Positions 2,629 through 25,781 of a stretch of 55,119 nt of DNA are shown piece by piece; the first letter of the stretch is position 1; each line of letters begins with the position of its first letter. Below the pieces are notes generated by a model. It was not told the origin of the DNA, ran no database searches, and saw only the letters and a program-made list of their open reading frames with translations. A program made the position numbers and the translations under genes. The stretch covers positions 1 through 55,119 of the IMG/VR virus record IMGVR_UViG_3300021368_001314, one strand, 5' to 3'. Source of the DNA: a virus. Taxonomy: Duplodnaviria > Caudoviricetes.

Positions 2629-3777
2629 ATGGAGCAAAATCTGATGTATTTTGTAATTAGGCCTGATGATGAACGCCCTCTATCCATAGAGGAAGAAGGA
2701 GAGTCAAAGACTCTTCTTGAGATAGTAAATACTCTGGGTATTACTACCTCGAAAGGAGAATCTTTCAAGCGGTTTTCTTCGATGTTAAAAGCATTAGAGA
2801 AACACGGTTTTCCAGAAATTGATTTACCTCATATTTCTGCTAAGAAACTCGACCACTTAGAACTAAAGATTACACCTGTTGAAAGTAATGCAATAGTTAG
2901 TAGTTACAAGACTGATGAACTGAACCGTTCAGTAGACCCAAGTAACAAAAATATCTCAAGATATTCTAAGCAAGATTTTACCACACAACCAAGAAAGATT
3001 TGCCCTTGTAATTTCAATGATGATTACAGAGAAGACTCAACCCATGAAGCACCTAAATGTTACATGATTCTGGAACCAAATAGTAACCCAACCGAAGAGA
3101 AATATATTTCCAGAGGTTCAAAGTGTAGAAACACTATGTCATCACTAGAATATTATCAGTTAAAGACATATTATACAAGTGCAATTATTGGCCATTATTG
3201 GAAGATTATTAATGTTCCAACAATGGTATTCAAGAGAGGTGATTTCGACAAAGCAAGAGATTCAAAACTTAATCTGAGAATCGGCAACGGAGAATCATTT
3301 CAATCGGACTTTTTCAGCAATAACAAAGACTTCAGAGATACAGTAGACGGTATCTGTAAAGACTGTAATTCACAAGGTTTCCAATGTGTTACAAAACAAA
3401 AGAAAAACGGTAACAAAGAAGTTCTAGGAACCATGTTAGTTGAGACACTAAATTATCATGGTTGGGATTCAGAAACTTACGATATGGTTGGTCTGGGTCA
3501 ATCATGGAATCAACCAAAGTACTTACAGAAATTATCTACCGGAGAAATTAGAAGCGTTGAGGATTGGAATATGCCAGACTTTAGATGCCGACCAACTTGG
3601 AGATTTACTATTGCTAAGTTCATTTGTAGAAATGACCCATTATCTAGTGAACCTCAAGTCAGATATGGTTGGGTCAAATACATACCAACAGATGCTATGA
3701 ACAAAGCACTAGATTCAATCAACAATGTATCATCAGAAATGCCATTGTTTGAAGAGGTGGATAACGGGTACTATTAG
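2629..3777 (+). CDS. Hypothetical Cys-containing protein (382 aa)
   Basis: Long ORF with TATA box (2600) 29 bp upstream and hairpin downstream. Confidence 0.75.
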   Translation: MEQNLMYFVIRPDDERPLSIEEEGESKTLLEIVNTLGITTSKGESFKRFSSMLKALEKHGFPEIDLPHISAKKLDHLELKITPVESNAIVSSYKTDELNRSVDPSNKNISRYSKQDFTTQPRKICPCNFNDDYREDSTHEAPKCYMILEPNSNPTEEKYISRGSKCRNTMSSLEYYQLKTYYTSAIIGHYWKIINVPTMVFKRGDFDKARDSKLNLRIGNGESFQSDFFSNNKDFRDTVDGICKDCNSQGFQCVTKQKKNGNKEVLGTMLVETLNYHGWDSETYDMVGLGQSWNQPKYLQKLSTGEIRSVEDWNMPDFRCRPTWRFTIAKFICRNDPLSSEPQVRYGWVKYIPTDAMNKALDSINNVSSEMPLFEEVDNGYY

Positions 3778-3784
3778 ATGCAAA

Positions 3785-3817
3785 AGGGGTTAGGAGTCTT
3801 TGAGACTTCTAGCCCCT
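3785..3817 (+). terminator. Stem-loop after ORF 2629-3777
   Basis: AGGGGTTAGGAGTCT-TTG-AGACTTCTAGCCCCT, 15-bp stem with G-U pairs. Confidence 0.6.
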
Positions 3818-3848
3818 CTTAAAACACTACAATAGGGGGTAAAAAAAC

Positions 3849-3956
3849 ATGAAAGAATTAGTTAAGTGTTCAAGATGTAAAACATACCTTTGGGAATCTT
3901 CTCAAATTGTATGTAAGGAGTGTCTTGATAATTGGAAAAAAACGGTGATAATATGA
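3849..3956 (+). CDS. Small zinc-finger protein (35 aa)
   Basis: CSRC...CKEC; GGGGGT RBS-like sequence upstream. Confidence 0.45.
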   Translation: MKELVKCSRCKTYLWESSQIVCKECLDNWKKTVII

Positions 3957-4168
3957 ATATGAAAAACGGTGATATAATAATCGTAAAATGGGTTTCTAAA
4001 TATGATAAACTGAAAATATGGGAATCAGTATTTAGTTCAGAAATTACTTATCTAGACTTTATCTGTACTAGAGATGTAATTGTAATATCAGAAGAAAGAA
4101 AATCAAATGTCTACGGACAAATGGCTGAAAGAATGAATGCGAGAAAGTCGAGAAGGGGGGTGATATAA
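3953..4168 (+). CDS. Hypothetical protein
   Basis: ORF with GGTGA RBS and ATGA overlap. Confidence 0.55.
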   Translation: MNMKNGDIIIVKWVSKYDKLKIWESVFSSEITYLDFICTRDVIVISEERKSNVYGQMAERMNARKSRRGVI

Positions 4169-4169
4169 A

Positions 4170-4463
4170 ATGACTAACAAAAGACCAATGTACCGAATAA
4201 CAACCTATGAAGATGATGAAAATCTAATAAATCCAACATATGAAAAACATCATGGTAATATATACTCAGTTGTACCAATTTTAGATTTAGAGAAGAGACT
4301 TGCTAAATACAAAAAAATGAACAACAAAAATAAGGGACAAAAGAGAGCATCAAAAACAGATTATGTTATACTGTATTTTCATAGAATGGCACATCTTCAA
4401 GGAGATGAACCAGATGAAAAGGATATTCAATTAGGCGATGTAACAATTTCCGGTGAAAACTAA
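4170..4463 (+). CDS. Hypothetical protein
   Basis: GGGGTGA RBS; operon packing. Confidence 0.6.
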   Translation: MTNKRPMYRITTYEDDENLINPTYEKHHGNIYSVVPILDLEKRLAKYKKMNNKNKGQKRASKTDYVILYFHRMAHLQGDEPDEKDIQLGDVTISGEN

Positions 4464-4494
4464 ATATGAATATTAGACGGATTTTCGTAAAATT

Positions 4495-4530
4495 AGGTCG
4501 GCCACCGAAATGGTGGTCGGCCTTTTTTTT
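4495..4530 (+). terminator. Hairpin plus oligo-T terminator
   Basis: AGGTCGGCCACC-GAAAT-GGTGGTCGGCCT followed by a T tract. Confidence 0.75.
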
Positions 4531-4584
4531 ATTTTTACAAAAGGGCTACCCTACAAAATAATTTTATTTTTTTTCTGGTGTGCT

Positions 4585-4670
4585 ACCCTACAAAACATTA
4601 CCCTACAAAACATGAGCCTACAAAATATTACCCTACAAAACTTTAACCTACAAAACTTTACCCTACAAAG
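4585..4670 (+). repeat. Tandem array, 6 units of 15 bp (ACCCTACAAAA + 4 nt)
   Basis: Units start at 4585, 4600, 4615, 4630, 4645, 4660. Confidence 0.9.
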
Positions 4671-4777
4671 TCTGAAAGAATCTGAAATCTAAAAATGTTT
4701 TCAAAAACTAAGATTCCAAACCCTACAAAATAAAGTAAATTATCCAAAAAAAAGGACATTTCTGCCCAGTTTTTTTT

Positions 4778-5251
4778 TCAAATATCCGCCTCTGATTTTA
4801 GTTTTGTCCAACCAAAATCATCACAATAATACATTTGATTACTAATCATTACAATATCACCAACACTCATTGAAGTATGGATTTCACATTTTCTAATCAT
4901 GTCTTGAAAACCACCTAATTCATGGAATCTAGATAGTGGGTTTCTTTCGTCGTGGTTAAACATAGCGAATAGTGTTCCTAATACCTTGCTTGTTGCCTCT
5001 GTAGTGTACCTTGATTCGGTTGTTTTGATTAAATTGTAGTGTAGTACCGGGTTATCTCGAATCGCTCTTACAATCGCAAAGTTTGGTAATTTAATCCAAG
5101 GTTTTAGGGTTCTGGAATCTACACCATTGACAACCTGTTCAATGGTAGGATATGCATCATCTGGATGCTTCCAATAACCTCTGGGATAGTAGAATATCTC
5201 TACAGAGGGCGTTCTAGTGCTTTCTTCTCCTAAGTCAAATGTTTCCGACAT
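4778..5251 (-). CDS. Hypothetical protein with YodL-like C-terminal motif
   Basis: HTSMSVGDIV...YYCDDFGW resembles the YodL-type SLSVSDVV...YYVDSFGF motif. Confidence 0.55.
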   Translation of the reverse strand: MSETFDLGEESTRTPSVEIFYYPRGYWKHPDDAYPTIEQVVNGVDSRTLKPWIKLPNFAIVRAIRDNPVLHYNLIKTTESRYTTEATSKVLGTLFAMFNHDERNPLSRFHELGGFQDMIRKCEIHTSMSVGDIVMISNQMYYCDDFGWTKLKSEADI

Positions 5252-5377
5252 ATTTTACCGGACTTGTATTATAGGTATGAATAGGCAACGGGTTAATTCT
5301 CTTAATTTTGTAGGGAAGGTTATCCTACAAAATAATATGTAGTGGCTTGATGTACATAACCCTACAAAATAATTGTA

Positions 5378-5433
5378 ACCCTACAAAATAATACCCTACA
5401 AAATAATACCCTACAAAACAGGACCCTACAAAA
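5378..5433 (+). repeat. Tandem array, 4 units of 15 bp (ACCCTACAAAA + 4 nt)
   Basis: Units start at 5378, 5393, 5408, 5423. Confidence 0.9.
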
Positions 5434-5527
5434 AAATCTCAGAGAAAAAATCTGAAAGAAAGATTCCAAACCCTACAAAATAATGAAAAAAAACCAAAAA
5501 AAGAAGGGGACTTGCCCCAACTTTTTT

Positions 5528-6058
5528 TCAGATATCTGATGCGAACTTTAACATCTCTTCCGGTACTTTTCTGAATAATAACCATCGTCCAGAATCTTGG
5601 GATTTCATAACCCAATATCCAGCAGCCTTGATGTCTGCTTTATTTGCCTTCCATTCATCCCAGAATGATTTGTCTGTAATATAGCCATACCAGACTGTTC
5701 TACGGCGACTCATCTTCATGGTGATACCAAATGCTTCCATATTAGTAAAGACCGGCCTAGCCGAGTCGTATTGCTTAATTTTAGCACCTTTATCACCTAC
5801 TTTATCTCTGATTGCTTGTGCTTTTACTTTTGCCTCAGTTTTATTATGTGCTAGGTTCTGAATAAAGGATGAAGTATGGAAATATCCATATGCACCTTTA
5901 ATCAATCTATCAACATATAGGGTGTAGTATTGTTCTTTACTACCTGTTCTACATACATAGTATGTAACCTCAATTCGAGGTTTTTGCGTTTTCGGGCTTG
6001 CTTCTGTTTTTGCAGTTAGTACACATAGTACTAGACCTAGTAGGATTCCAACCAACAT
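5528..6058 (-). CDS. Hypothetical protein with hydrophobic N-terminus
   Basis: Signal-like LVGILLGLVLCVL; TATATATA about 30 bp upstream on the - strand. Confidence 0.65.
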   Translation of the reverse strand: MLVGILLGLVLCVLTAKTEASPKTQKPRIEVTYYVCRTGSKEQYYTLYVDRLIKGAYGYFHTSSFIQNLAHNKTEAKVKAQAIRDKVGDKGAKIKQYDSARPVFTNMEAFGITMKMSRRRTVWYGYITDKSFWDEWKANKADIKAAGYWVMKSQDSGRWLLFRKVPEEMLKFASDI

Positions 6059-6283
6059 GATTCATACGAAGTACTGTTAGTATATATACATTATTGGTAA
6101 TTAGGGTAATATTTTGTAGGGTTAAGTTTTGTAGGATTAGGTTTGTACTATACTGCGTATGTCATCCCTACAAAATCTTATGTAGCATATTAGGACAAAC
6201 AACACAGGCCAACCCTACAAAATATGGCAACCCTACAAAAAAATGAGGGCGGGGTGTTGCAGCACCCCAACCCTACAAAAGAT

Positions 6284-6421
6284 TTATTGCGTTATTTTAC
6301 GGTAACGAGCCGCCCCATTTTGATACCCTACAAAAGAGTATTTTTTTGGGCATGGGTAGCCCCATTCATTCTTATTTTTCTTACCTAGCCTATCCGCTTT
6401 AACTGTACCTTTTAAGGACAT
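6284..6421 (-). CDS. Small basic protein (45 aa, MSLKGTVKADRLGKK...)
   Basis: Upstream context (GTAAAATATG, repeat 56 bp upstream) mirrors the gene starting at 5251. Confidence 0.4.
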   Translation of the reverse strand: MSLKGTVKADRLGKKNKNEWGYPCPKKYSFVGYQNGAARYRKITQ

Positions 6422-7220
6422 ATTTTACTCTAGTCGTGTTTTGCTTATAGTATTATCGGTAATCTATCTCTTTATTTTGTAGGGTGTTGTAATATTCCCT
6501 AGTATTGTCTCCTACAAAACAATATGTATGGATTTTATTTTGTGTCCTCTAAGTATAGGGGTTTCATGCCCTAAAAAATCAACCCTACAAAATAATAATA
6601 AGTGCAATTTTTACACTAAGTGTTGTGAATAACACCGAATAACCCTACAAAATATGTTTTTTTAGCAAAAAAACCCTACAAAATATCGAGCCGTAAAAAG
6701 GTAGTATTTATATAGGTAAACAGCATCTCATCACGGATATTTGGTTCTGCGGGATTATTTTGTAGGGGTAAAATAACATGGCCGGATTTGACACAGAGAG
6801 AAGAGTGAAAAAATAAAACCCTACAAAATAAAAAAAACGCTGTACTGCGGCGGTGCAAAAAGTAAACCTAAGATTTTTTCCCTACAAAATAAAACCTACA
6901 AAATATTTTCCTACATTTGCTTAGCCACAATTATTTTGTAGGGGTTCTCCGTAGTCAAAAAGTTACTTAGTGTAAAAACTACACCGAGTGTCAAAAACTA
7001 CACCTGCTGTTAAACACACACTAAGATATTTTGTAGGGGTTGGGTATTCTAAAAAATGAAAGACCCTACAAAAGATTAAATAGAAAGATTATTTTTTTGG
7101 TAAAACAAAACCCTACAAAAGACAGGCTATAAGATGATGAAAAATTACAAAAAGTTACCCTACAAAATAAGGAGAATGCTACATAGTACCCTTTATATAC
7201 TAGAACTATATTTTTATAAT

Positions 7221-7799
7221 ATGAGTAAAATTAGAAAACCATGCAGATACAAACAATGTAAGGGGGTTGTCCATCGTGGCAAATGTCCCGTAGCCTCAAA
7301 AAGAGGTTCAAAGGGTGGAAGCACTACCGGCAAATCAAAAGCGAGAACAGGTTCAAGTAATGGTCGATTTACAGGACTTCGAGAATGTGGATGTCCAAAA
7401 AGACAACATTTACCTTCATGTATTCATTCTCAATTGACATTACAAAAAATCAAAATTATCAATGCACATGATTTCAATTATAATGAAAATCTACCACTTG
7501 AGATTTACGACCAAAAAATGCAATCTAAGTTTCCAAAGTCAAAGACTAAAATTAGAATTGCGAGAAAAGAAAATATCCCACTCAAAAGAACTGTGGCAAA
7601 TTGGGAATTAGAAAATGCCGTCAAGGTAAAATCAATTCCTCATTATTCATTCTTAAAATATACAGGCGTGTGTGCCTCATGTGCGTGTGAGAAAAATATC
7701 AAAGACGCACACGTCATACACGTAGACGATATTAAATATAAATTACCAAAAGAGCATTATTTCAAGGCTCGAATAATTTGCGACGCTTGCGAAGCATAA
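7221..7799 (+). CDS. Zn-binding basic protein with KGG-like motif and C-terminal CxxC...CxxC (HNH-like) domain
   Basis: CxxxxC..H..C, SKGGSTTGKSKA, CGC...H..C, CASC...CDAC; start reassigned to ATG 7221, 29 bp after TTTATATA at 7192. Confidence 0.6.
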   Translation: MSKIRKPCRYKQCKGVVHRGKCPVASKRGSKGGSTTGKSKARTGSSNGRFTGLRECGCPKRQHLPSCIHSQLTLQKIKIINAHDFNYNENLPLEIYDQKMQSKFPKSKTKIRIARKENIPLKRTVANWELENAVKVKSIPHYSFLKYTGVCASCACEKNIKDAHVIHVDDIKYKLPKEHYFKARIICDACEA

Positions 7800-7815
7800 T
7801 CGGAGACTATAAATA
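7782..7815 (+). promoter_or_regulatory. Class II promoter, copy 1 (GACGCTTGCGAAGCA + TATA)
   Basis: Motif 7782, TATAAATA 7808, ATG 7837. Confidence 0.8.
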
Positions 7816-7927
7816 GTATTAACAAAAGGTGAGAGCATGGACAAAAGAGGCGTGAATAACAGAGGCAGAACTCAAAGAGTTGTTAATTTGCTTCTTGATG
7901 ATTCTAAAAGATACGGGAGAAAAAGAT

Positions 7928-8173
7928 ATGAACAATGATAAATATAATGGATGGACAAACAGAGAAACTTGGTTAGTTAATTTGCATTTCGAGCCGGTAT
8001 CAAAATCTGATTTATATTGGATAAAAGATACCTTAGAACAGCAAATTGAAAAAATCAATGAGATTTGGTGTGGAAGATTCTTTTCAGATTTTATTGATTT
8101 GAATAAAATCAATTGGTATGAATTAGAAAATCATGTTGTAGAAAATAGTGATGACGCTTGCGAAGCAGAATGA
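7928..8173 (+). CDS. Conserved phage-type hypothetical protein (YNGWTNRETW motif)
   Basis: GGGAGA RBS before ATG 7928; ends DACEAE inside the motif. Confidence 0.65.
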   Translation: MNNDKYNGWTNRETWLVNLHFEPVSKSDLYWIKDTLEQQIEKINEIWCGRFFSDFIDLNKINWYELENHVVENSDDACEAE

Positions 8174-8186
8174 GAGACTTTAAGTA
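8153..8186 (+). promoter_or_regulatory. Class II promoter, copy 2
   Basis: Motif 8153, TTTAAGTA 8179. Confidence 0.8.
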
Positions 8187-8508
8187 AGATTGACGATAAG
8201 ATTAATTTGTAAGACAAGGAGACAAAAAATATGTACGAAGATAGCGAATGGCTAAAAGAAATGATTGAAATGACGAATGCGGGTAAGATTTATTTGGCGG
8301 GGTCTGAGAGATGAAAGATTTCCGCCCGACACTTCAAAAAAGAATTGATTTGAGAAAATCGAATCCGGCCTTAACCCTTTGGGCTAGGCAAAAAATTGAT
8401 GAACTCGGATTGAATGCCGAGAAATATTAGATTTACCAAAAAAGTAAAACTTGCCTTCCGGCATTAGGTTCGGGAGAGGACTTGTTTTGTAGGGTCAAAA
8501 AACCTTTC

Positions 8509-8543
8509 GGGGTGCATCCATTCGGGTGCATCCCACTTTTTTT
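8509..8543 (+). terminator. Hairpin plus oligo-T terminator
   Basis: GGGGTGCATCC-ATTC-GGGTGCATCCC then ACTTTTTTT. Confidence 0.7.
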
Positions 8544-8824
8544 ATTTTTATAGCCTATATTTTGTAGGGTTAAAGATTCATTTTTTTTATTTCAGATTCA
8601 AATATTTTGTAGGGTAGTTACTTCTTCCGCAAAAATAATTTTGTAGGGTCGCCCCTTTTTTCGCACATACATATACCCTACAAAATAATAGCCTGTGTTT
8701 TGTAGGTTATTATATTTACAGTAAAACTAAAAATCCTACAAAAGATTCCAAATCCAAAAACTAAAACCCTACAAAATAAAACCGTAAAAGAAAAAAATAA
8801 ACTCAAAAATGAACCCTACAAAAT

Positions 8825-8858
8825 AACGCTTGTGTAGCAGAATAGTAGTCTTTTTATA
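8825..8858 (+). promoter_or_regulatory. Class II promoter, copy 3 (variant AACGCTTGTGTAGCAGAAT), abutting an ACCCTACAAAA
   Basis: Motif 8825, TTTTTATA 8851, ATG 8881. Confidence 0.75.
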
Positions 8859-8880
8859 GTAGTAGTTTTTCGTGGTAAAT

Positions 8881-9300
8881 ATGCAGTTCGGTATTGATAT
8901 TAAAAAATCAAAAATGATTGGAGACTACGTTGTTTACAATAGCAAAGATAGAGAAAAGTTTAGAGAAATTAAAAAGGGAGATATTTTTTATATGGCTCAA
9001 GATAGAGTTAGAGTTTTGGCAAAAGTACATAAAGTTGAGTGGCGTTATGAAAATGGTAAAGAGTTTTATTGGTTTCCTATGAAATATATAGCGAGAAGAG
9101 ATTTACAAACAGGCGAAGTTAAAAGATGGAGTGAGGATAAAGATGGTTTTCTTTTTAGTTATTCTTGTAATCAAGAAACAGGTATTCAAAGACATTTGCC
9201 GGTTCGCTCTTGGGGATTTAAGATAGAATCCGAAAATCTAGATGGTTATCTAGATGCTTTTCAAGAAATGGCTACGCTGGACGCTTGCGAAGCAGAATGA
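8881..9300 (+). CDS. Hypothetical protein (ends DACEAE)
   Basis: Leaderless ATG 30 bp after TATA. Confidence 0.7.
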   Translation: MQFGIDIKKSKMIGDYVVYNSKDREKFREIKKGDIFYMAQDRVRVLAKVHKVEWRYENGKEFYWFPMKYIARRDLQTGEVKRWSEDKDGFLFSYSCNQETGIQRHLPVRSWGFKIESENLDGYLDAFQEMATLDACEAE

Positions 9301-9313
9301 CAATGCTTAAATA
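9280..9313 (+). promoter_or_regulatory. Class II promoter, copy 4
   Basis: Motif 9280, CTTAAATA 9306. Confidence 0.8.
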
Positions 9314-9349
9314 GTAGTGCTAATATGGATATATATAGGAGAAAAACAC

Positions 9350-9592
9350 ATGAGATTAAAAAGATTTTTAGATAGAAATAAAGGCGTGAATGTTTATGAT
9401 TTTATTTATGATACATATCGTGAATGGGAAAATAAGGATTTCCATACTTTTACCGAAATTATGGAATATGAACTAGGGGTAAAATCTGATAAAGTTTACG
9501 ATTTTTATGAAAAGTATGCTGAAAACGATTTTGATGAGTTTATATTAAGGATATTAAATAGAGCATATAAGGAGATGTTAGAAAATGTATAG
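9350..9592 (+). CDS. Hypothetical protein
   Basis: AGGAGA RBS. Confidence 0.6.
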   Translation: MRLKRFLDRNKGVNVYDFIYDTYREWENKDFHTFTEIMEYELGVKSDKVYDFYEKYAENDFDEFILRILNRAYKEMLENV

Positions 9593-9998
9593 TGGAATAT
9601 GGATTAGAGATAAAGATTTAGATAAAACCGTAGTACGTTGTGAGGGTGGTATCAGAGATATTACAAGTGCAAAGATAAAGTTTAAGATTTATCAACATCA
9701 AGATTGGTGGCTTGATAAATATGACGGATTTAATTTAGGGGAAGAGTTTTATTTATGGTTAGAAAATCTTGCTGATAATACAAGACCAATATATCATGCT
9801 CCAAATCCCTTTGGACTTGCGGTTGCTTATCATGTAGGTATCTATGAGAATGAACAATTTGAAGTTAGGATTGAGGTAGAAAAAAATATAGAGAGAGAAT
9901 CAGATTCACATTGGTTAAAAAAGTGGGGCGGAAAATTACAAAAGCCCCTCGGCACACCAACAGTTTCGACGCTTGCGAAGCAGAATCAAAAGGTTTAA
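9585..9998 (+). CDS. Hypothetical protein
   Basis: AGGAGA RBS; reads through the motif (TLAKQNQ). Confidence 0.6.
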   Translation: MYSGIWIRDKDLDKTVVRCEGGIRDITSAKIKFKIYQHQDWWLDKYDGFNLGEEFYLWLENLADNTRPIYHAPNPFGLAVAYHVGIYENEQFEVRIEVEKNIERESDSHWLKKWGGKLQKPLGTPTVSTLAKQNQKV

Positions 9999-10001
9999 AT
10001 A
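9968..10001 (+). promoter_or_regulatory. Class II promoter, copy 5
   Basis: Motif 9968, TTTAAATA 9994, ATG 10023. Confidence 0.8.
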
Positions 10002-10138
10002 GTAGGGCGGAGATGGATATATATGAGCAAATACACACCGATAATAGATGATAGGTATATAAGAGAGTTCAATGAATTAATGAAAAAAGCGATAGAGAAA
10101 GTGGAACGCTTGAGAGAAAAAGATAAGGAGAAATAAAT

Positions 10139-10378
10139 ATGACAAAGACACCGATAGAAGCATTACAAGATTTTGATTTTACAGTCAAAACAGGATTGAC
10201 GCTATACTTTGAACCAAACCCACATAGAGGATGGACTTCTGATAATATAAACAGAATGATGCAAGAAAAAATAGAAAGTGGAGAAATTGACCCGAAAGTT
10301 TTGAAAATAAAACATACAGAGAATCCGGCTGTTCGTATAAAAAAGTGTCATAATTTGTTGAGGGAGATGGGATTATGA
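10139..10378 (+). CDS. Hypothetical protein
   Basis: AAGGAGA RBS. Confidence 0.6.
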   Translation: MTKTPIEALQDFDFTVKTGLTLYFEPNPHRGWTSDNINRMMQEKIESGEIDPKVLKIKHTENPAVRIKKCHNLLREMGL

Positions 10379-10417
10379 AGTATGACCCAAACGCACCTTT
10401 AATTAGAGAAGAATTAT

Positions 10418-10451
10418 TACGCTTGCGAAGCAGAATCGTAAGACTTAAAAA
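10418..10451 (+). promoter_or_regulatory. Class II promoter, copy 6
   Basis: Motif 10418, CTTAAAAA 10444, GTG 10474. Confidence 0.8.
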
Positions 10452-10473
10452 GGATGACTAATTAGTTAGTTTT

Positions 10474-11550
10474 GTGGGAGAAGTAACCCACACTAAAAAA
10501 ACATTCGCAAAAAAACAAAAAGGAGAAAATAAAAAAAAAATGGAAGTGAAAAAAATGAGTAACGGAATGAGAGGAATGTTGGGTGCATATGCCCGATTTG
10601 GAAAAGAAGCACAAGGAACGACTGTGAAAGAGGTTTTGCGTAATGCAAATGCCGATTTCAATATTGGTATGGAATCAGTCTATACTAAAGATGGGAAGGT
10701 TATACCTAACCAATTTAGGACATTTAGAGAAGATACCGATGAAACTTTTGGTGTTGTAAAAGGCACATACAAAGTTATGCAAAATGAAAGATTGTTAAAT
10801 ATATCTGACGATTTGGTAAAAAGAGGCGTAGTAGATTGGGATAGGATTGGACTTGTAGATAACGGTAGAAAAATCGTAGCATCTTTTAAGATGCCGGAAG
10901 GATTCTCTATCGGTGGAATGGATGATGTAGACCAATATATCATGCTCCAAAATACAAATGACGGTTCGGGTGGAATACGTATTTTACCCTCAAATGTAAG
11001 AGTTACTTGCAGTAATCAATTTACATATATGCAAAGTCTGTTGAATAAAATGGGTATCAATAAAAATGCTCTAACTATCAGACATTCAGCACGTCAAGAA
11101 GATAGGATTGCACAATTGGTAGAGGCTCTAAAAATTGTAGACCATCTAAATCAGACATTCATGGAAACAGCAACGGAGTTAATCAATGTTGAAATGTCTC
11201 AAGATGACAGAATTAATTTTTACATAGATACTTTAGGGCTAAAACAAAATGAAGATATGATGAAGGGTGGCAAAGATTATGATGCTAACAATCCTTACGG
11301 ATTAGGTACTAGAGGTCAAAATACTCTTGATACTTTGTTGGAATTAGAGAAGGCTGATACAAATACCTTGAACGGTATGGAAAATAGTGCTTGGGCTGCT
11401 TTCAATGTGGCTACGGAATATATTGACCATGCATGGAGTCATACCAAAGATGGAAAATCCAGCGATAGCAAAGTAGAATCAGCAATCGTAGGAGCAGGTG
11501 CAAGAATGAAGTCAAACGCTTGGGAGACTATCACGGAGATGTACGCCTAA
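10474..11550 (+). CDS. DUF932/DUF945-family phage/plasmid protein
   Basis: FGVVKGTYKVMQNE, NTNDGSGG, RVTCSNQ, IRHS, AWAAFNVATEYIDH; alternative start ATG 10540. Confidence 0.8.
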   Translation: MGEVTHTKKTFAKKQKGENKKKMEVKKMSNGMRGMLGAYARFGKEAQGTTVKEVLRNANADFNIGMESVYTKDGKVIPNQFRTFREDTDETFGVVKGTYKVMQNERLLNISDDLVKRGVVDWDRIGLVDNGRKIVASFKMPEGFSIGGMDDVDQYIMLQNTNDGSGGIRILPSNVRVTCSNQFTYMQSLLNKMGINKNALTIRHSARQEDRIAQLVEALKIVDHLNQTFMETATELINVEMSQDDRINFYIDTLGLKQNEDMMKGGKDYDANNPYGLGTRGQNTLDTLLELEKADTNTLNGMENSAWAAFNVATEYIDHAWSHTKDGKSSDSKVESAIVGAGARMKSNAWETITEMYA

Positions 11551-11564
11551 GATTTATCGTAAAA

Positions 11565-11607
11565 GTAAGTAGGGGGGTAGTACCCTCTACTTACGCCTTC
11601 GGGCGTA
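11565..11607 (+). terminator. Two adjacent stem-loops, the second with a C(UUCG)G tetraloop
   Basis: GTAAGTAGGGGG...CCCTCTACTTAC and TACGCC-TTCG-GGCGTA. Confidence 0.6.
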
Positions 11608-11614
11608 GCCTATC

Positions 11615-11659
11615 TTTTGTAGGGTAACGCTTGCGAGGCAGAATGAATAGATTTAAGTA
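11615..11659 (+). promoter_or_regulatory. Class II promoter, copy 7, directly preceded by an inverted CCCTACAAAA
   Basis: TTTTGTAGGGT 11615, AACGCTTGCGAGGCAGAAT 11626, TTTAAGTA 11652, ATG 11682. Confidence 0.8.
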
Positions 11660-11681
11660 AAAAGAAAAAGGAGAGAGATAT

Positions 11682-12095
11682 ATGGGTAGAGCAAGATACG
11701 GAAAAACCGGAGAAATATGCAAAAGACAAAACGGAAAAATGATGATAACTTGTAGGCCAACACCTACGATTTTAGATGATAAAGATATAGCCATGTTTTT
11801 AGGCTATCTTTGTAATGTACAAAGTCATTATAGTGACTACGGAGAACAAATTAGTTATGAAGATGGTAAACAAAAAATACATGATTGGCAATATAATACA
11901 GGTGCAGTTACACCTTTGACAAAGAAATTAATTATGGGTTATCTAGAAAGTAATTATTACTTAGCACAATTTGAAGAAGGTACTGATATGTTTGAGTTCT
12001 ATGATTCAGAGAATGGTTCACATAGAGCATTACTAGAAAAAGTACATGAGATATTCCCTTCTTTTGTGGTAAAAGAAACTGAGGTGATTGCATGA
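11682..12095 (+). CDS. Hypothetical protein
   Basis: ATG 30 bp after TATA. Confidence 0.65.
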   Translation: MGRARYGKTGEICKRQNGKMMITCRPTPTILDDKDIAMFLGYLCNVQSHYSDYGEQISYEDGKQKIHDWQYNTGAVTPLTKKLIMGYLESNYYLAQFEEGTDMFEFYDSENGSHRALLEKVHEIFPSFVVKETEVIA

Positions 12096-12349
12096 GTAAT
12101 CCTTACAGAGTCAAAGTTTATCCTATGGCCGCAAATCAGTTTAGGATATTTCATGGTGATAAGATAACATTTCAATCATACAATCATACAATATGCACCA
12201 AAATTGGAGATAGAGTAATTTTACATGAGCCATATTGGAATATGTATTCGGCAACCACTAACAAATATTTACTAAGATTCTTAGAAGAAGATTCAATTAA
12301 TACTATTAGGGCAAAAGTAAAATCGGGAGAATATGAGGTGATTGCGTGA
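12092..12349 (+). CDS. Conserved phage-type hypothetical protein (FQSYN...YSATTNKY)
   Basis: GAGGTGA RBS, ATGA overlap. Confidence 0.65.
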   Translation: MSNPYRVKVYPMAANQFRIFHGDKITFQSYNHTICTKIGDRVILHEPYWNMYSATTNKYLLRFLEEDSINTIRAKVKSGEYEVIA

Positions 12350-12558
12350 GTTTAACATTAAATGATATAATCAGTTTTACATTTAAGGAAAGAGAAAAAG
12401 ATAAATATAGTTTTGATTGGCTATATGATTATCCTATTACAGTCGCTTACAAAGATAAAGATGGAGTAACCGTTTTATCAGATATTACGAGTATTTGCTT
12501 TAACGGTAAAAGTTTTCAATTGAATGAAGAAGAGTTTGACAAAGAGGTGAATGCTTAA
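12346..12558 (+). CDS. Hypothetical protein
   Basis: GAGGTGA RBS, overlap. Confidence 0.6.
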   Translation: MSLTLNDIISFTFKEREKDKYSFDWLYDYPITVAYKDKDGVTVLSDITSICFNGKSFQLNEEEFDKEVNA

Positions 12559-12920
12559 TGGCTAATTTGAATATTATTACCAAGCAAGTTATCTCTTGGA
12601 TAAATGAATCTAATACGGATTTTAATTTAGAGTTAGGAGAAAAGAAACTTTACTTAGTTGTAGAATGGACTGATGGTGCATCACTTTTTATAGAAGATTA
12701 TTTTAATTTTATGAATGAATTGATTATGGTTTATTGTGATTTAGATGAAGATACTGATGAGGAAAAAGTAATTTGGTTTAACAAACTATTCGGAATCGGT
12801 AGTGAATGGTATAATTTAGCAAAAGAACAGTTATTAGATAATCTCTTCTCTGCGGTTGCTGACGCTTGCGACACAGAATCGGTAGACTTAAATAAAATGG
12901 AAAATGAGGTGAATATATGA
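12558..12920 (+). CDS. Hypothetical acidic protein (contains DACDTE)
   Basis: GAGGTGA RBS. Confidence 0.6.
   Translation: MANLNIITKQVISWINESNTDFNLELGEKKLYLVVEWTDGASLFIEDYFNFMNELIMVYCDLDEDTDEEKVIWFNKLFGIGSEWYNLAKEQLLDNLFSAVADACDTESVDLNKMENEVNI
12861..12894 (+). promoter_or_regulatory. Class II promoter, copy 8
   Basis: GACGCTTGCGACACAGAAT 12861, CTTAAATA 12887, ATG 12917. Confidence 0.8.
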
Positions 12921-13159
12921 GAAATACATCAATAAATGCACATGATATAAAAGAAATAAGATTAGTATATGGAGATACGGAAGATGGTTTAGGCCACCTA
13001 CTTAGAGTTATAATTGTTAATAACGATGACTCAACTGATGACATTTCCCTTTTCGGAGCGAAAAATAGTATTAGAATACCCGTAAAACTAGATGAAAAAA
13101 TTATGACTACAAGACATAATATTAGTTTTATCGGAGATGTAAAAGAGGAAGAGGAATAA
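12917..13159 (+). CDS. Hypothetical protein
   Basis: ATG 30 bp after TATA. Confidence 0.6.
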   Translation: MRNTSINAHDIKEIRLVYGDTEDGLGHLLRVIIVNNDDSTDDISLFGAKNSIRIPVKLDEKIMTTRHNISFIGDVKEEEE

Positions 13160-13161
13160 AT

Positions 13162-13500
13162 ATGGCACTAAAAGATACACTAACTAATTTGCATAAGTAT
13201 TATGAAGAGATAGAGACATTATACGGTGAACACGACTTTAACCCTAATATTTCTTTTGCTAAAACTTACGCTAAAAATACTGTTTGGGCTGCTTTTTATA
13301 CAGCAGCGAGAGAGATAGGTATGCCCGAAGATATGGCTAAACAATTTATTGATTCAAAGTGGTTTAGACACAATGAAGAAGAAATATACCAACAACTTAC
13401 AGCGACATTATTTACAATGCTTTGGTGTGATGCATCTTTTGTTGATAACACACAGTTTAGTAAATTAGAGCCTTACATTGATAGAGGGGATGTAGAATGA
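13162..13500 (+). CDS. Hypothetical protein
   Basis: Operon packing, GAGG RBS. Confidence 0.6.
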   Translation: MALKDTLTNLHKYYEEIETLYGEHDFNPNISFAKTYAKNTVWAAFYTAAREIGMPEDMAKQFIDSKWFRHNEEEIYQQLTATLFTMLWCDASFVDNTQFSKLEPYIDRGDVE

Positions 13501-13612
13501 TTGCAGATAGTTTTAAGGAAATAATAAATGATGAAATGATGGTATTGATATTAACTCAAGTTATTTTTGGGGTAATATCATTAGGGGTATTAGTTGCTGC
13601 GGTTGTGATATT

Positions 13613-13795
13613 ATGAGTCAAAAAATGCACGTTAGAGATAAATTGAGAGGTGCTTTAGACCATTTAGAAAGTGCCTGTAACCTTCTTCTTTCAGCGAGAA
13701 ATGAGGCGGAAATAACAAGTAAAAGTTACGCTAGACTTAACAATGATATTGCAGATGTAGAATGGCAAATAAAATATTTATTAGGAGATGAGTAA
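13613..13795 (+). CDS. Small helical hypothetical protein
   Basis: Abuts the next gene. Confidence 0.5.
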   Translation: MSQKMHVRDKLRGALDHLESACNLLLSARNEAEITSKSYARLNNDIADVEWQIKYLLGDE

Positions 13796-14419
13796 ATGAA
13801 GATACCAAGTTATTACGAATACAAGTACTATGTAGGCGACCCTTGTTATGTTATAGATGATAATAGATGGGATGAGTTTTGTGAGGCTCTATGGGCTAAT
13901 GAACACGACAATGCAGTAGATGTAGCAAAATACAAAAAGATACCTATAAATGAGGTACGACACGAAGATAAATATCCCGTTCATATTGAGTGGGACGTAG
14001 ACGGTATAATTTACAATATAGAAGTATGGAATAGCCCTTTTGGAGATGGTACTTGGAAGTTTAGTAATACCGTAAAAAAAATGCGTGGTTGGATTGCAGG
14101 TACGGAAATGGGAGTTGATGCAGGTTTATTGGCTATTGTGCCTTATGGTGCTATTTCTAATAACAGTACTTGTATAGATAAAGATAACGTAAAAGTAATA
14201 TCTGATTTAGGTATCATATTTACACATGAACCATACTTACAAACAGGTGAATACATTACAGGTAATGTTAGATTGAATGACAACGACGAAGATAATGTAA
14301 TCTATTGTGATAATTGCGGTGAAGAAACACACGACAGCGATTTAATGTGGTGCGAATATGGTAACTGTATTGGTTGTTGGACTTGTTATGAATGTGAATG
14401 TGAGGATGAGGAAGAATGA
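13796..14419 (+). CDS. DUF4241-like protein with C-terminal Cys cluster
   Basis: YVGDPCY and GVDAGLLAIV motifs; CDNC/CEYGNC/CWTC/CEC tail. Confidence 0.5.
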   Translation: MKIPSYYEYKYYVGDPCYVIDDNRWDEFCEALWANEHDNAVDVAKYKKIPINEVRHEDKYPVHIEWDVDGIIYNIEVWNSPFGDGTWKFSNTVKKMRGWIAGTEMGVDAGLLAIVPYGAISNNSTCIDKDNVKVISDLGIIFTHEPYLQTGEYITGNVRLNDNDEDNVIYCDNCGEETHDSDLMWCEYGNCIGCWTCYECECEDEEE

Positions 14420-14790
14420 GTAGTAGGCGACCTAGAAAAATCATAGTTGATTTCTGTTACAGATACATTAGAGATAACGGAAAACAAACTTCTAGTGATT
14501 TGCTTAAAGCATATTACGAACAAGATTTAACTACGAAAAAAATCGGTCTTTGTACACAAAGAGAATTATCACAGACACTAACAAAAGATAGACTTTTCTT
14601 TAAGGTAAAAGAAGATTCTAAAACAGTAAAGTATGATATTAATGATGTGCATGAGGTAGCGAAGAAATTGGCTTCACTAACACATATTAGAGCGACCCCT
14701 GCTCAGATGCCTAAGATACTTAGGGATGCATATATTGACGCTTGCGAAGCACAATCAACAGACTTAAATAGAATGAGCGAGAGGGTATAA
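14416..14790 (+). CDS. Winged-helix-like DNA-binding protein (contains DACEAQ)
   Basis: QTSSDLL...TQRELSQTL...LF pattern shared with other small ORFs. Confidence 0.5.
   Translation: MSSRRPRKIIVDFCYRYIRDNGKQTSSDLLKAYYEQDLTTKKIGLCTQRELSQTLTKDRLFFKVKEDSKTVKYDINDVHEVAKKLASLTHIRATPAQMPKILRDAYIDACEAQSTDLNRMSERV
14737..14770 (+). promoter_or_regulatory. Class II promoter, copy 9
   Basis: Motif 14737, CTTAAATA 14763, ATG 14792. Confidence 0.8.
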
Positions 14791-14949
14791 TATGAGTAAA
14801 ACAGTAGAAGTAAAGATGAGAGTATTAGATTGGACATGGTGCGACGGAGACGAAGAGTGTTTCGTTACACTAGAATACAGCGATTGCCTACAAACAAAAC
14901 CACTTATTTATAGGGGAATTGTAAGTATAGAAGATGTGAGGGATTTACA

Positions 14950-15501
14950 ATGAATATATTTGTACTAAACCAAAACCCCGAATTAGCGGCTAGAGATTAC
15001 TGTAACAAACATCTACCAAAGATGTGTGTAGAGATGTTACAAATGCTAGGTTCGGCTGTCATTAGACACGGTGCTACACCCGACATGATGCCACTTACTA
15101 AGAAAGGTACGCCTCTCAAGGGTGGCTATCATAATCATCCTTGTACTCGATGGGTAGGAGACAGTAGAGACAATTATATTTGGACTGTACGCCATGCCCT
15201 AGAGATATGCAAAGAATATACAGACAAGTATAACAAGATTCATTTTTGCGAAGCAGGTATTCGCCATCTTTATTTTATGGCAAAACTAATTCCCGAAGGC
15301 GACCTTACACATTTTGCTCTTGCTATGCCCGATGAGTATAGGCCGGAAAATGTAGACGGTGAAGAAATTATCTATCATGCCGATGCAGAGGCAGCAGTAG
15401 ACGCTTACAGGCGTTATTATCATAGTAAAGAGTTTGCTCGATGGGATGGTCGCATCATGCCTTCATGGTGGAAAAGTTACAGATATGTGGGGTTAGAATA
15501 A
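14950..15501 (+). CDS. Pyrimidine-dimer DNA glycosylase / endonuclease V-like protein
   Basis: MNIFVL...A...CNKH..KM..E..QML, HNHPCTRW, AMPDEY, AVDAYRRYY signature. Confidence 0.75.
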   Translation: MNIFVLNQNPELAARDYCNKHLPKMCVEMLQMLGSAVIRHGATPDMMPLTKKGTPLKGGYHNHPCTRWVGDSRDNYIWTVRHALEICKEYTDKYNKIHFCEAGIRHLYFMAKLIPEGDLTHFALAMPDEYRPENVDGEEIIYHADAEAAVDAYRRYYHSKEFARWDGRIMPSWWKSYRYVGLE

Positions 15502-15675
15502 TATGAGAGAAGAAGCAAGTATATCAGAGGAAGATTTTGCAGAGTTGTGGGATTTGTGGTTTAGTATAATGCCTTTTCTTTCTACATTTTACGCATCAAA
15601 AAATCAGATAATTATAGACATTCTGTATAAGTTTAGAGATATAAATCACAAAAATAATTTAGGATTGGTGGAAGA

Positions 15676-16035
15676 ATGAAAATACCGGATATGTTTTACA
15701 ATCAAGGTTCTTTTAACGGTAAAAGTAACCCATACGAAGATATTTATCACCGTGTAGAAACAAGTGGATTTGCGGGTTGGACTAAACAAAATGGACAAGA
15801 TGTATTTGTGATAGAAGTTGGAGAACACAAGTGGGATTGCTGTTGTTCGGGATGCATAGATGATGAAACAGTTACAGAGCATTTAGAGTGGATTGATTGG
15901 TATGGAAGAAATTATGAATGGGAAGTTACACACCATAGAAATTGGAAGTATGAATGGGTAGATAAACTAGGGACAGGTAATCCCATGTGGTTTCCAAAGG
16001 ACTTTAACTTTACCAAAGGAGATGAAGAAGAGTGA
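15676..16035 (+). CDS. Hypothetical protein
   Basis: GGTGG RBS; acidic tail. Confidence 0.6.
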   Translation: MKIPDMFYNQGSFNGKSNPYEDIYHRVETSGFAGWTKQNGQDVFVIEVGEHKWDCCCSGCIDDETVTEHLEWIDWYGRNYEWEVTHHRNWKYEWVDKLGTGNPMWFPKDFNFTKGDEEE

Positions 16036-16059
16036 GTAGTTTTTTCTTAAATAAAAAAA

Positions 16060-16093
16060 GACGCTTGCGAAGCAAGAACGACAGACTTAAAAG
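16060..16093 (+). promoter_or_regulatory. Class II promoter, copy 10
   Basis: Motif 16060, CTTAAAAG 16086, ATG 16116. Confidence 0.8.
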
Positions 16094-16146
16094 GGATGAC
16101 GTTTTAGGTAGAAACATGGCGAGAGCCGACAAAGGAGATAACAGAA

Positions 16147-16341
16147 ATGAATAAAGAAAGATATGAAATGGAAATGGAAAGAGAAATATATCGCTCAATG
16201 CTAGATATGATAGACAATGGCGATATTGTAGAAGATATTACGGATGTAGCAACAAGAAAAAGAATATTGCACGTTAAAACTGTTCTACATAGTATGTTAA
16301 ACGCTAATGCGTTTATGTCCGTAACTAATGGAGAGGAATAA
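16147..16341 (+). CDS. Hypothetical protein
   Basis: AAGGAGA RBS. Confidence 0.55.
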   Translation: MNKERYEMEMEREIYRSMLDMIDNGDIVEDITDVATRKRILHVKTVLHSMLNANAFMSVTNGEE

Positions 16342-16342
16342 A

Positions 16343-16615
16343 ATGAATATAAATGATGAATTAAGAAAGATTAAAGAAGAAAGAAGAAATACAAATGAGG
16401 AATTAAGAAAGAATGCCCCTATACCAAAGGGTGAACATGACATCAGAGGTGTAGAGTTTGAGAATATACACAACGGTATTACGATGGAAATTGTAAGTAG
16501 TTGGGTTAGTGATAAAGGTATAGTCCTATGGACTTCCGATGCCGGAGATTTATACACAACTAGAGATATTAAAGCACATTGGATGATGGTAGGCGAAGAA
16601 CCACAAGGATGGTGA
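16343..16615 (+). CDS. Hypothetical protein
   Basis: GAGG RBS; packed after the previous stop. Confidence 0.55.
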   Translation: MNINDELRKIKEERRNTNEELRKNAPIPKGEHDIRGVEFENIHNGITMEIVSSWVSDKGIVLWTSDAGDLYTTRDIKAHWMMVGEEPQGW

Positions 16616-16787
16616 ATACATGACTACAATAACGGTAAAAGTAAGAATAGAAGTAGAAGAAGAAATAGAGATTGATGTAGAAAGCGATTTGATGCACGAA
16701 AGCATTGAAGAATACATGGATGGTGTAACGTCAAACTTACAAGACCATATACTTTTAGAAGATTATGCAGAATGGGAGTTGGTTTAG

Positions 16788-17018
16788 ATGAGTGACGATG
16801 CTATTATACAAAGACTAAATGCACTAATTGAAGAATTAGAGCAATTGAGAAAGGCTGATGAGGCTTGTGATTATGCCTTACATTACATATATGAAACGGA
16901 AAGCAGTTTGCCTAGCGAAATATGCATGAGTCATCATGCAGGTATGGAGATGGAAGAAGTACAATCCGAGATACAAGAAAGAATAACAGAATTAGAATAT
17001 AAAATAGGAGAGATATAA
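16788..17018 (+). CDS. Coiled-coil hypothetical protein
   Basis: Packed ORF. Confidence 0.55.
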   Translation: MSDDAIIQRLNALIEELEQLRKADEACDYALHYIYETESSLPSEICMSHHAGMEMEEVQSEIQERITELEYKIGEI

Positions 17019-17019
17019 A

Positions 17020-17301
17020 ATGAGTGAATTAAAAAGACATTATTGGTCGGAGACATTACTTTGTACTAGCGGAAAAGTAAAGATTGACAGAAGAGAGATT
17101 GCGGCAATAGTCGAAAGAGATTTAGTAAAATATTCAGAACTAGATATACACTTAAAGTCCGGTAGTATCTTTACCGTAAAAGAATATGACGTAAATACCA
17201 TAGCAAATCTCTATCTAATAGAGTCGCCACATGAAGAGGTGCAAACAGTACCTAATACTTTTACCATAAGAAAAGGTAAAGCACCGGAGAGTGAAGAGTA
17301 A
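17020..17301 (+). CDS. Hypothetical protein (small beta domain)
   Basis: AGGAGA RBS. Confidence 0.6.
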   Translation: MSELKRHYWSETLLCTSGKVKIDRREIAAIVERDLVKYSELDIHLKSGSIFTVKEYDVNTIANLYLIESPHEEVQTVPNTFTIRKGKAPESEE

Positions 17302-17714
17302 TGCCTAACAAGAGACAGAATGCAGCACGACTGTATCTATACAATAGAAAATACAAAGCACGTAGAAATTATACAGGGGAAGAGGAATGAGTTTTGGCGA
17401 CTTCAAATGTAATTGCGGTAAAAGAAAAATAGTTTACAAGAAACCTAAGTACCCTAATTATTGCGGTAAATGTATGGGGTGGTTCTAATACCTAAATTAC
17501 CACCTAAAGAAGATGACATGGGTTATACGGGTGATTTACCTAGTATGGCTACCAACATGAGAAATATGCAAAACCACCTTAAAAGAAAGATTAGAGTAGA
17601 TGAAATACATCCCGATAATGTAACCGACGAGGAAATGACAAACTTCTTGATTAGTTGTTTCGGTTTTAGTAGAGAGTATTGTGAAAAAGCAGTAGAAGAA
17701 TGGAGAGAAAAGTT

Positions 17715-18276: not shown

Positions 18277-18283
18277 GGATATT

Positions 18284-24049: not shown

Positions 24050-24102
24050 CTTTATATAGTTGAGTTTGAAAAAAATTGTAGCAAAAAATTATTGGTGGTA
24101 GC

Positions 24103-25779: not shown

Positions 25780-25781
25780 AT

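Follow-up and report, generated by a model that had tools for sequence, protein, structure and literature searches.

What is the function of 47 copies of one short sequence, CCCTACAAAA (the box), packed into four intergenic gaps in the genome of a marine tailed virus? The copies lie in the 55,119-bp record IMGVR_UViG_3300021368_001314 (Duplodnaviria; Caudoviricetes), the whole of which was analyzed and is called the window here. They form a field at 4549-8823, between the block of genes around the terminase gene terL and the arm that carries the replication genes. The initial annotation of this DNA had described a protein-binding platform and offered origin iterons, a packaging or terminal-repeat signal, a staged DNA-entry region, and a sponge for host proteins as options. 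The clearest signal was absent from that annotation: some of the boxes stand at a set distance ahead of TATA boxes and leaderless-type gene starts, an arrangement that argues for transcription control. On a narrow balance of probability, the boxes would be the sites of a virus-encoded, sequence-specific DNA-binding protein and would serve as upstream activating sites controlling an island of variable accessory, probably early, genes.

Box matches were counted on both strands of the window. The exact sequence was found 38 times, compared to a mean of 0.17 and a maximum of 2 in 100 dinucleotide-preserving shuffles, and when up to one mismatch was allowed there were 50 matches (5.0 expected). Forty-seven of these are in 4549-8823, close to the earlier count of about 46: eight at 4549-4730, eight at 5306-5480, 22 at 6112-7167, and nine at 8485-8823. 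As had been noted, the boxes are limited to these four gaps. All 47 were outside credible genes on the map of open reading frames (ORFs): box 6326 sits within a doubtful 45-aa minus-strand ORF, and the overlap of a box with ORF 7134-7799 vanishes when the true start, ATG 7221, is taken from the 192-aa homologs of relatives. The one copy noted elsewhere, at 11615..11624 on the minus strand, was the sole exact match outside the field and is conserved in the related contig L077, and the single-mismatch matches at 38284 and 49785 are compatible with chance. All 48 boxes, counting this outlying copy, keep 9-10 of the 10 core positions. The extended motif is a-CCCTACAAAA-t-a, with the 5' A present in 40, the 3' T in 31, and the 3' A in 40 of the 48, while the outer flanks vary.

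Both orientations occur, as described before, with 35 field boxes on the plus strand and 12 on the minus strand, and the field does span a strand divergence, with minus-strand genes at 4778-6058 and plus-strand genes from 7221. The initial annotation had also reported two arrays with a 15-bp period, of six and four units. Their number and period were reproduced with Tandem Repeats Finder, but the sizes were 5.7 units (4584-4669) and 5.0 units (5359-5437, with four boxes at exactly 15 bp and one at 19 bp). Apart from the two arrays, the boxes are irregularly spaced and of mixed orientation. Misassembly had been raised as a way in which the field could prove spurious. Contigs from run X3, another sample, span 3766-5518 and 5496-7456 with one or two differences, and in contigs from run X4, a different study and 95-99% alike, both arrays are partly covered, with small indels. 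Because these independent assemblies reproduce the arrays, an assembly artifact is excluded.

At five starts in the field of the window, a box oriented with the gene is followed after 22-31 nt by a TATA element (TTTATATA, GTATATATAC, or CTATAAT) and, about 20 nt later, by an ATG that lacks a Shine-Dalgarno sequence. The distances from the end of the box to the ATG are nearly constant:

Gene A, ATG 5251: 54 nt
Gene B, ATG 6058: 53 nt
45-aa ORF, ATG 6425: 53 nt
P0001, ATG 7221: 53 nt
Gene 8881, ATG 8881: 57 nt

Operon-internal genes, unlike those behind box promoters, carry GGAG or GGTGA 6-10 nt ahead of the ATG. Aligned promoters from lineages with CCC, GCC, GAC, and GT spellings of the box (see below) all have a box, 22-25 nt, a TATA element, about 20 nt, and an ATG, and the same layout was found with the lineage's own box in L221 and L215 (GCC), L224 (GAC), L250 (GT, as a palindromic pair), and L290. 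In the four lineages, the promoter-proximal boxes are 52-57 nt ahead of the ATG. Distances from box end to ATG peak at 50-59 nt, with 27 of 118 pairs in this range versus 5 of 98 opposite-orientation controls. Eleven of 22 field ORFs of at least 60 aa, from four lineages, had a box 50-58 nt upstream; in 2000 random placements, the mean was 1.3 and the largest number 5. The observed figure is indicative, as the ORF list includes spurious and operon-internal ORFs and the lineages share ancestry.

Leaderless archaeal transcripts are recognizable by a TATA box whose center is about 26 nt ahead of the first ATG base, and the transcripts behind the box promoters are predicted to be of this kind. If they are leaderless, the promoter-proximal box would be at about -53 to -62, which is the position of an upstream activating site and not of a TFB recognition element (BRE). 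A role as BRE was rejected, since the box is 22-25 nt from the TATA box rather than adjacent to it. As a bacterial -35 element, the box would have a spacing to the TATA-like element that is too long for sigma-70, and the Bacteroidota -7 motif did not fit the sequence. A scan for sigma-70 promoters gave 24 versus 22.9 expected, which is no enrichment.

An equivalent field, which the initial annotation had suggested looking for in relatives, is present in them at the same place downstream of terL. When IMG/VR was scanned for pairs of boxes no more than 33 nt apart, six contigs of close relatives were retrieved, with 6-30 copies each after the terL block (30 in L052, 30 in L077, 27 in L007, 20 in L014, and 19 in L029). 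A search anchored on the terminase protein, TerL, yielded 80 loci, 27 of which had at least 4 kb downstream of terL. In 22 of the 27, an 8-mer was repeated at least 12 times downstream of terL and 0-3 times upstream; three of the 22 repeated words were the TATA core rather than an upstream box. In the five loci without a repeated 8-mer, TerL identity did not exceed 64%. Lineages spell the box differently (CCC-, GCC-, GAC-, GC-, GT-, and ATC-TACAAA), with the TACAAA core constant:

CCCTACAAAA: the window group
GCCTACAAAAC: L215, L220, and L221, with TerL 95% identical to that of the window
GACTACAAAA: L224 and L225, TerL 94%
GCTACAAAT: G005 and L245, often as the 16-bp palindrome GCTACAAATTTGTAGC
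GTTACAAAA: L250 (64 copies) and L258
ATCTACAAA: G006
Words without TACAAA, such as AAATCCAAA: other lineages

In two CheckV-complete genomes, G005 and G006 (both about 72 kb), 71 of 73 and 45 of 47 lineage boxes are confined to 63,816-71,801 and 43,417-49,304, respectively. The position and orientation of the boxes are conserved among relatives (alignments A1 and A4). An alignment of the cores of the CCC and GCC lineages pairs boxes at homologous positions that are spelled CCC...T in the lineage of the window but GCC...C in L221 and L215, and the conserved elements between the respelled boxes are unchanged. These two lineages are 95% identical in TerL and 91-94% identical in the DUF932 protein. 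Spacing in other lineages is 12 bp or 14-35 bp, and the arrays have 3-7 units across relatives and also differ in copy number between samples. The concerted respelling of dozens of sites points to a co-evolving virus-encoded recognition protein and not to a host factor, because viruses with 95% identical TerL use different boxes. The multi-site protein-binding platform of the initial annotation fits the conservation of the field, its concerted respelling, and its restriction to a single field in the complete genomes, and from these features we infer the binding itself.

The genes behind the promoters have been exchanged. Gene A was found in L007 (79% identity) and is absent from L052, L014, L029, and L077, and gene B was found in L077 (91% identity) and in none of the other close relatives. 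Alignment A1 shows conservation of the promoter at box 6475(-) and of the first bases of the transcript, but the ORF behind them differed in three groups of relatives. The segment 5455-5502 is 85% identical to 4705-4752; these are shared flanks of the two minus-strand cassettes, indicating duplication of a module. Analysis with Pfam of 45 field ORFs from seven relative loci, representing six box lineages, identified ORFans or members of DUF932, DUF7249, DUF6891, DUF3846, and NUDIX, and no DNA-binding family. By this comparison the field is a hypervariable cargo island, because the genes behind the promoters are swapped and the content is of the ORFan and DUF kind, and genes for counter-defense or host takeover are likely to be located in it. 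The features of the field and its surroundings in the window are as follows:

662-2173: terL, T4-type large terminase, ahead of the field, which is 2.4 kb downstream
2174-2452: small gene fused to the end of terL, 90-97% identical across box types
4495-4523: terminator-like hairpin and T-run, ending the terL-side operon
4549..4730, plus strand: box cluster 1, eight boxes, all (+), including a 15-bp array of six units (4586-4670), between the terL-side terminator and the 3' end of gene A
4778..5251, minus strand: cargo gene A, 157 aa, no family
5306..5480: box cluster 2, eight boxes, with the second array at 5360-5433; 5306(-) is promoter-proximal for gene A
5528..6058, minus strand: cargo gene B, 176 aa, with a hydrophobic N-terminal segment
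6112..7167: core non-coding region, 22 boxes in both orientations; 6112(-), 6475(-), and 7158(+) are promoter-proximal
6838..6855, plus strand: G+C-rich 18-nt element CGCTGTACTGCGGCGGTG, with a box and an A8 run ahead of it
7193..7200, plus strand: TATA box TTTATATA, 25 nt after box 7158-7167 and 20 nt before ATG 7221, the model case of the promoter layout
7221..7799, plus strand: P0001, 192 aa, the first plus-strand gene past the core
7880..8431, plus strand: rest of the P0001 operon, a DUF7249 gene and two small ORFs, ending at a terminator-like hairpin (8509-8534)
8485..8823: box cluster 4, nine boxes, five (-) and four (+); 8814(+) is promoter-proximal for gene 8881 and abuts a copy of the second motif (see below) at 8826-8839
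11615..11624, minus strand: lone box, directly beside a second-motif copy (11627-11640) and upstream of gene 11682

The core includes one promoter of the same design with no gene behind it: box 6674(+) is followed after 23 nt by TTTATATAG (6707), and both are conserved, but no ORF follows. A 750-bp stretch of the core (6470-7220) is conserved as a whole in same-box relatives. The CGCTGTACTGCGGCGGTG element has been kept in the CCC and GCC lineages (at 10915 in L221) and also in the distant L091 (7355), which lacks the TACAAA box. The putative non-coding transcript 6733-6880 had no excess of RNA structure (z = -0.74).

If the boxes are upstream activating sites, the protein bound at a promoter-proximal box would help to recruit TBP, TFB, and RNA polymerase. 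The approximately 40 extra copies, in 15-bp arrays and inverted pairs, would be homotypic clusters that raise the local occupancy; the surplus clusters might also act as an enhancer, a sink, or a roadblock, and each lineage would have its own private regulatory code. The conserved promoter modules would serve as recombination anchors for the exchange of cargo.

The best local candidate for the box-binding protein is P0001, and it is a tentative one that we consider rather doubtful. Its sequence combines a basic Gly/Ser-rich stretch with three conserved Cys/His clusters, and its family comprises 108 clusters of unnamed marine proteins. P0001 tracks the box better than its neighbors do, with 85-98% identity within the CCC group versus 59-60% in the GCC group. 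In an all-against-all clustering of the field-bearing lineages, only TerL, its two neighbors, the DUF932 protein, and P0001 recurred. AlphaFold models from nine sequences had a predicted local distance difference test score (pLDDT) of 47, which is unusable, and those from 78 sequences had a pLDDT of 72 and a predicted template modeling score of 0.33. The 78-sequence model had no Foldseek match in the PDB at E ≤ 0.001, and matches in the ESM Atlas had scores of at most 0.79, with no family or fold.

Several observations weigh against upstream activating sites bound by a viral protein. A TATA-like element follows at 19-32 nt for only about 7-8 of the 48 window boxes, and neither 15-bp array, both of which are located at gene 3' ends, is followed by a promoter; simple promoter use fails to explain most box copies, because of these two facts. 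The promoter cases are not fully independent of one another, given the common ancestry of the lineages. P0001 has no recognizable DNA-binding fold and no match in Pfam, a profile search of the complete relatives found it absent from G006, which has 47 boxes, and from G007, and several proteins adjoining P0001 also diverge between lineages. The chaperonin of the virus is of the GroEL type rather than a thermosome and so provides no direct archaeal link. Finally, a minimum of GC skew at the field fits a replication origin equally well.

An origin is a possible but unlikely alternative, in which the boxes would be iteron-like sites for a virus-encoded origin-binding protein that possibly also regulates the neighboring promoters, as happens in many plasmids and in SV40 or EBV. 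Replication would then initiate in the core at 6470-7220, which contains the ORF-less promoter and the 18-nt G+C element. In favor are the density and lineage specificity of the sites, their occurrence in both orientations, and their confinement to one locus per genome; the core non-coding region is more conserved than the flanking genes, the promoter at 6674/6707 leads to the A8 run and the 18-nt element rather than to an ORF, and the virus has its own family-B polymerase. Such an ORF-less promoter recalls the transcription-primed origins of T4 and T7. The cumulative skew has its minimum at the field edge in both G005 (about 62-64 kb) and G006 (about 42-44 kb), but G006 has a second, equal minimum at 52-54 kb, and the skew follows the coding strand throughout and is thus confounded. 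The skew of the whole window, a check that the initial annotation had proposed, likewise tracks gene orientation. Scanning of 46 + 20 + 24 window ORFs revealed no initiator domain, whether Rep, Orc1/Cdc6, or another. The spacing of the boxes (15 bp, or 12 or 14-35 bp elsewhere) and their mixed orientation are unlike those of classical iterons, the field is interleaved with genes over 4-9 kb, and the fixed geometry of box, TATA, and ATG is not needed by an origin. The iteron option in the initial annotation is possible but unlikely: the skew minimum in two complete relatives is confounded by gene orientation, an initiator gene was not found, and the spacing and orientation are not iteron-like. 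The two functions may also be combined, with one viral protein on 50-70 sites both firing the accessory or early island and marking or activating the replication origin, a combination to which we likewise give a low probability. The field would then be the cis half of a rapidly evolving DNA recognition system private to these viruses, which would be abundant marine archaeal viruses. This arrangement, with promoters and origin served together, would be comparable to EBNA1 with oriP and to SV40 T antigen. If it is true, switches of two to three specificity bases would create mutually exclusive compatibility groups among co-circulating, otherwise 95% identical viruses.

The remaining explanations are less probable still. 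A decoy that titrates a host DNA-binding or defense protein, or sites borrowed from a host transcription factor, would account for copies that far outnumber the promoters and for arrays that lie away from them, and the field genes look like accessory or counter-defense cargo (ORFans, DUF932, DUF7249, DUF3846, DUF6891, NUDIX). The concerted switch in spelling between viruses as similar as the CCC and GCC lineages is hard to square with a fixed host target, and a scan for box pairs in the genomes of 185,579 species gave scattered single matches in unrelated bacteria, with no field and no Poseidoniales among the matches listed. This disfavors the host-protein sponge that had been listed as an option, and we regard it as improbable. 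That the field is a pac region, part of a terminal repeat, or a T5-like injection-stop region is very improbable. It is near terL, many relatives' contigs end 1-2.2 kb after terL or within the field, and G005 has a 119-bp end repeat at the field edge. The field is internal, however, in the window and in contigs of 18-71 kb, and a 119-bp overlap is the usual leftover of an assembler on circular or permuted genomes; repeats break assemblies anyway. The TerL has a T4-type Terminase_6C domain, and TerL proteins of this type are usually headful enzymes. The small terL-adjacent gene does not co-vary with the box, and the promoter geometry would be left unexplained, so that the packaging option of the initial annotation is weakly disfavored. 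Finally, the boxes might have no binding function and be remnants of duplication and recombination of promoter and cargo, or repeats expanded by slippage. The duplicated modules at 4705-4752 and 5455-5502 and the variable copy number of the arrays are what such a history would leave, but all 48 copies keep their core while the flanks vary, positionally homologous boxes are respelled together between lineages, and neither coding DNA nor the remaining approximately 50 kb contains boxes. This, too, seems scarcely probable.

Virus-specific regulatory repeats are already known. The closest description is that of HF2 and other haloferacalesviruses, which have intergenic repeats of classes IR I and II according to the account of these repeats in Russ, Pfeiffer and Dyall-Smith (2021, PMC8707807). 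As described there, HF2 is an archaeal tailed virus that, like the virus of the window, has a family-B polymerase, its intergenic repeats are tied to TATA promoters and conserved in place and orientation, and distinct repeat classes serve different gene blocks. The same account proposes virus-encoded factors, with CxxC zinc-finger proteins as candidates, and describes 12-bp direct repeats spaced 14-15 bp in one bidirectional promoter region (PMC8707807). HF2 differs in having 7 + 2 repeats of 58 and 29 bp, with TATA box and start site inside them, spread over 30 kb. Here, a box of 10-13 bp is upstream of a separate TATA element, 47-73 copies are crowded into 4-9 kb, most are off promoters, the spelling switches between close lineages, and there is no sequence similarity to the HF2 repeats. 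In terms of the HF2 type, a fixed tie to TATA was found for about 7-8 of the 48 window boxes and conservation of position and orientation was found as well, but the TATA box is not inside the repeat. What is new here is the density, the position upstream of TATA, the copies off promoters, and the concerted respelling.

In the PeSL cassettes of the hyperplastic regions of T4-type phages, repeated early promoters flank small variable ORFs and appear to mediate their shuffling. These cassettes differ from the field in having a sigma-70 early promoter and a hairpin, one per gene, and are not known to form dense arrays or to carry a lineage-specific code. Many short sites recognized by one element-encoded protein are found in plasmid and phage iterons with Rep, in the heptads of the pSM19035 omega repressor, in EBV oriP with EBNA1, and in the pentanucleotides of SV40 T antigen. 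Direct and inverted sites are shared with these systems, which couple promoter control with replication or maintenance, but the sites here are irregularly spaced and scattered between genes across kilobases. Among the ORFs scanned in the window and in the relatives' fields, there was no gene for an initiator, a partition ATPase, or a ribbon-helix-helix protein. Iterons are tandem direct repeats of about 17-22 bp with a helical phase of about 22 bp, whereas the box is 10-13 bp and the arrays have a 15-bp period. Neighboring ORFs had no Rep-like domain in Pfam or PHROGs, and the adjacent P0001 is an unclassified Cys-rich protein. An archaeal origin with origin recognition boxes (ORB or mini-ORB), which are inverted around an unwinding element beside an orc1/cdc6 gene, is not indicated, as there was no Orc1/Cdc6 in the 46 window ORFs scanned and the box has no ORB-like dyad arrangement. 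Neither is a partition centromere, whose array would be upstream of an operon with a ParA- or ParM-type ATPase, as scans of the window ORFs and of 45 field ORFs from the seven relative loci found no ParA, ParM, or ParB. Lambdoid repressors with their operators (immunity types) and the T7, T3, and SP6 RNA polymerases with their promoters are known examples of specificity that co-varies between close phage relatives. Here, similarly, viruses that are nearly identical spell a multi-copy regulatory site differently, implying a viral recognition protein that evolves together with the site and a regulatory code of its own for each. Unlike in those pairs, no RNA polymerase or repressor homolog was detected, and the box is upstream of a host-type TATA element and not itself a promoter or operator.

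Term searches of the main texts of three magrovirus papers found no mention of repeats, promoters, or motifs of this kind, and when full texts were searched for the box and its complement, the matches listed were all primers. Viruses of uncultured marine group II archaea are known from metagenomes only, and to our knowledge there is nothing on how they time their genes or start replication. The field may thus provide a culture-free, testable handle on both. The defined box, its lineage variants, the fixed promoter layout, and the natural specificity swaps (CCC versus GCC) make the binder searchable. If upstream activating sites are indeed what the boxes are, they would be among the few examples with fixed spacing in archaeal-type promoters, and the field presents a putative multi-site regulatory code that switches in concert.

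Downstream genes carry a different motif. The sequence ACGCTTGCGAAGCA, with palindromic arms GCTT-N3-AAGC, has 10 exact and three near copies, all on the plus strand, in 7783-25796 (at 7783, 8154, 8826, 9281, 9969, 10419, 11627, 12862, 14738, 15242, 16061, 18230, and 25783). A TATA-like element comes 11 nt after each copy, ahead of the start of a gene in the downstream block that the motif serves, and the GCC lineage has GCTTAAGAAGC in its place. This second motif is probably a second promoter class; since a different motif is used outside the field, the virus seems to have at least two classes of promoter, as would be expected for temporal classes. The motif is often inside the 3' end of the preceding ORF (7782-7799, 8153-8173), and at least two unrelated proteins (7221-7799 and 7880-8173) end in ...DACEA owing to the overlap. 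Copies at 9281-9300 and 9969-9998 are no more than 20-30 nt from where ORFs 8881-9300 and 9585-9998 end. Conserved short palindromes are also found between the boxes of the core, at 6603-6640 and 6969-7004 (AGTGnA-N5-TACACT, GTGTT-N6-AACAC, and GTGTA-N5-TACAC), and may be sites for a second, dimeric protein. A sequence that resembles them, GGTGTAAAA, is repeated five times in L091.

The window encodes a T4-type TerL (Terminase_6C), tape-measure and tail tube proteins, a family-B DNA polymerase, a PD-(D/E)XK nuclease, an ERCC4/HhH nuclease, a DUF932 protein, and a chaperonin. The chaperonin (28536-30110) belongs to the Cpn60_TCP1 family and is GroEL-like, its nearest named cellular matches being about 35% identical proteins called 'chaperonin GroEL', and a search based on it for Poseidoniales genomes found no relative. 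Magroviruses have a tailed-virus module, a family-B polymerase, and a chaperonin, with GroEL in groups B and C and genomes of 65-100 kb, according to the genome descriptions in Philosof 2017 (PMC5434244). The virus of the window is probably a magrovirus, with a Poseidoniales host, because its gene set matches this description; its close relatives are 71-72 kb. The link to Poseidoniales consists of the TATA boxes and leaderless-type promoters only, from which we infer that the host is an archaeon. The phage GenBank collection contained no close relative (TerL below 25% identity).

Contigs of L214, L216, L217, L219, L222, L223, L231, L241, L244, L278, and L282-L285 end 1-2.2 kb past terL, shortly before the repeat field or where it begins. 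Assemblies of this virus family probably tend to break there, and the repeats would explain the frequent breaks just past terL. An Rfam scan of 4000-12000 found nothing beyond one sub-threshold match, and a tRNA scan found none. The 2272-aa minus-strand ORF beside the tape-measure gene (37764-44582) had no Pfam or PHROGs family, and an HNH endonuclease ORF (31921-32295) overlaps the start of the family-B DNA polymerase gene (32270-34510). The DUF7249 gene probably starts at ATG 7928, with a GGGAG motif upstream. Within it, at 7943-8011, a stretch of 47-69 nt has a DNA identity of 80-91% with hypothetical genes in SPO1-like Bacillus phages, including one in a terminal-repeat region (Thurquoise), and this identity is unusually high for such distant viruses.

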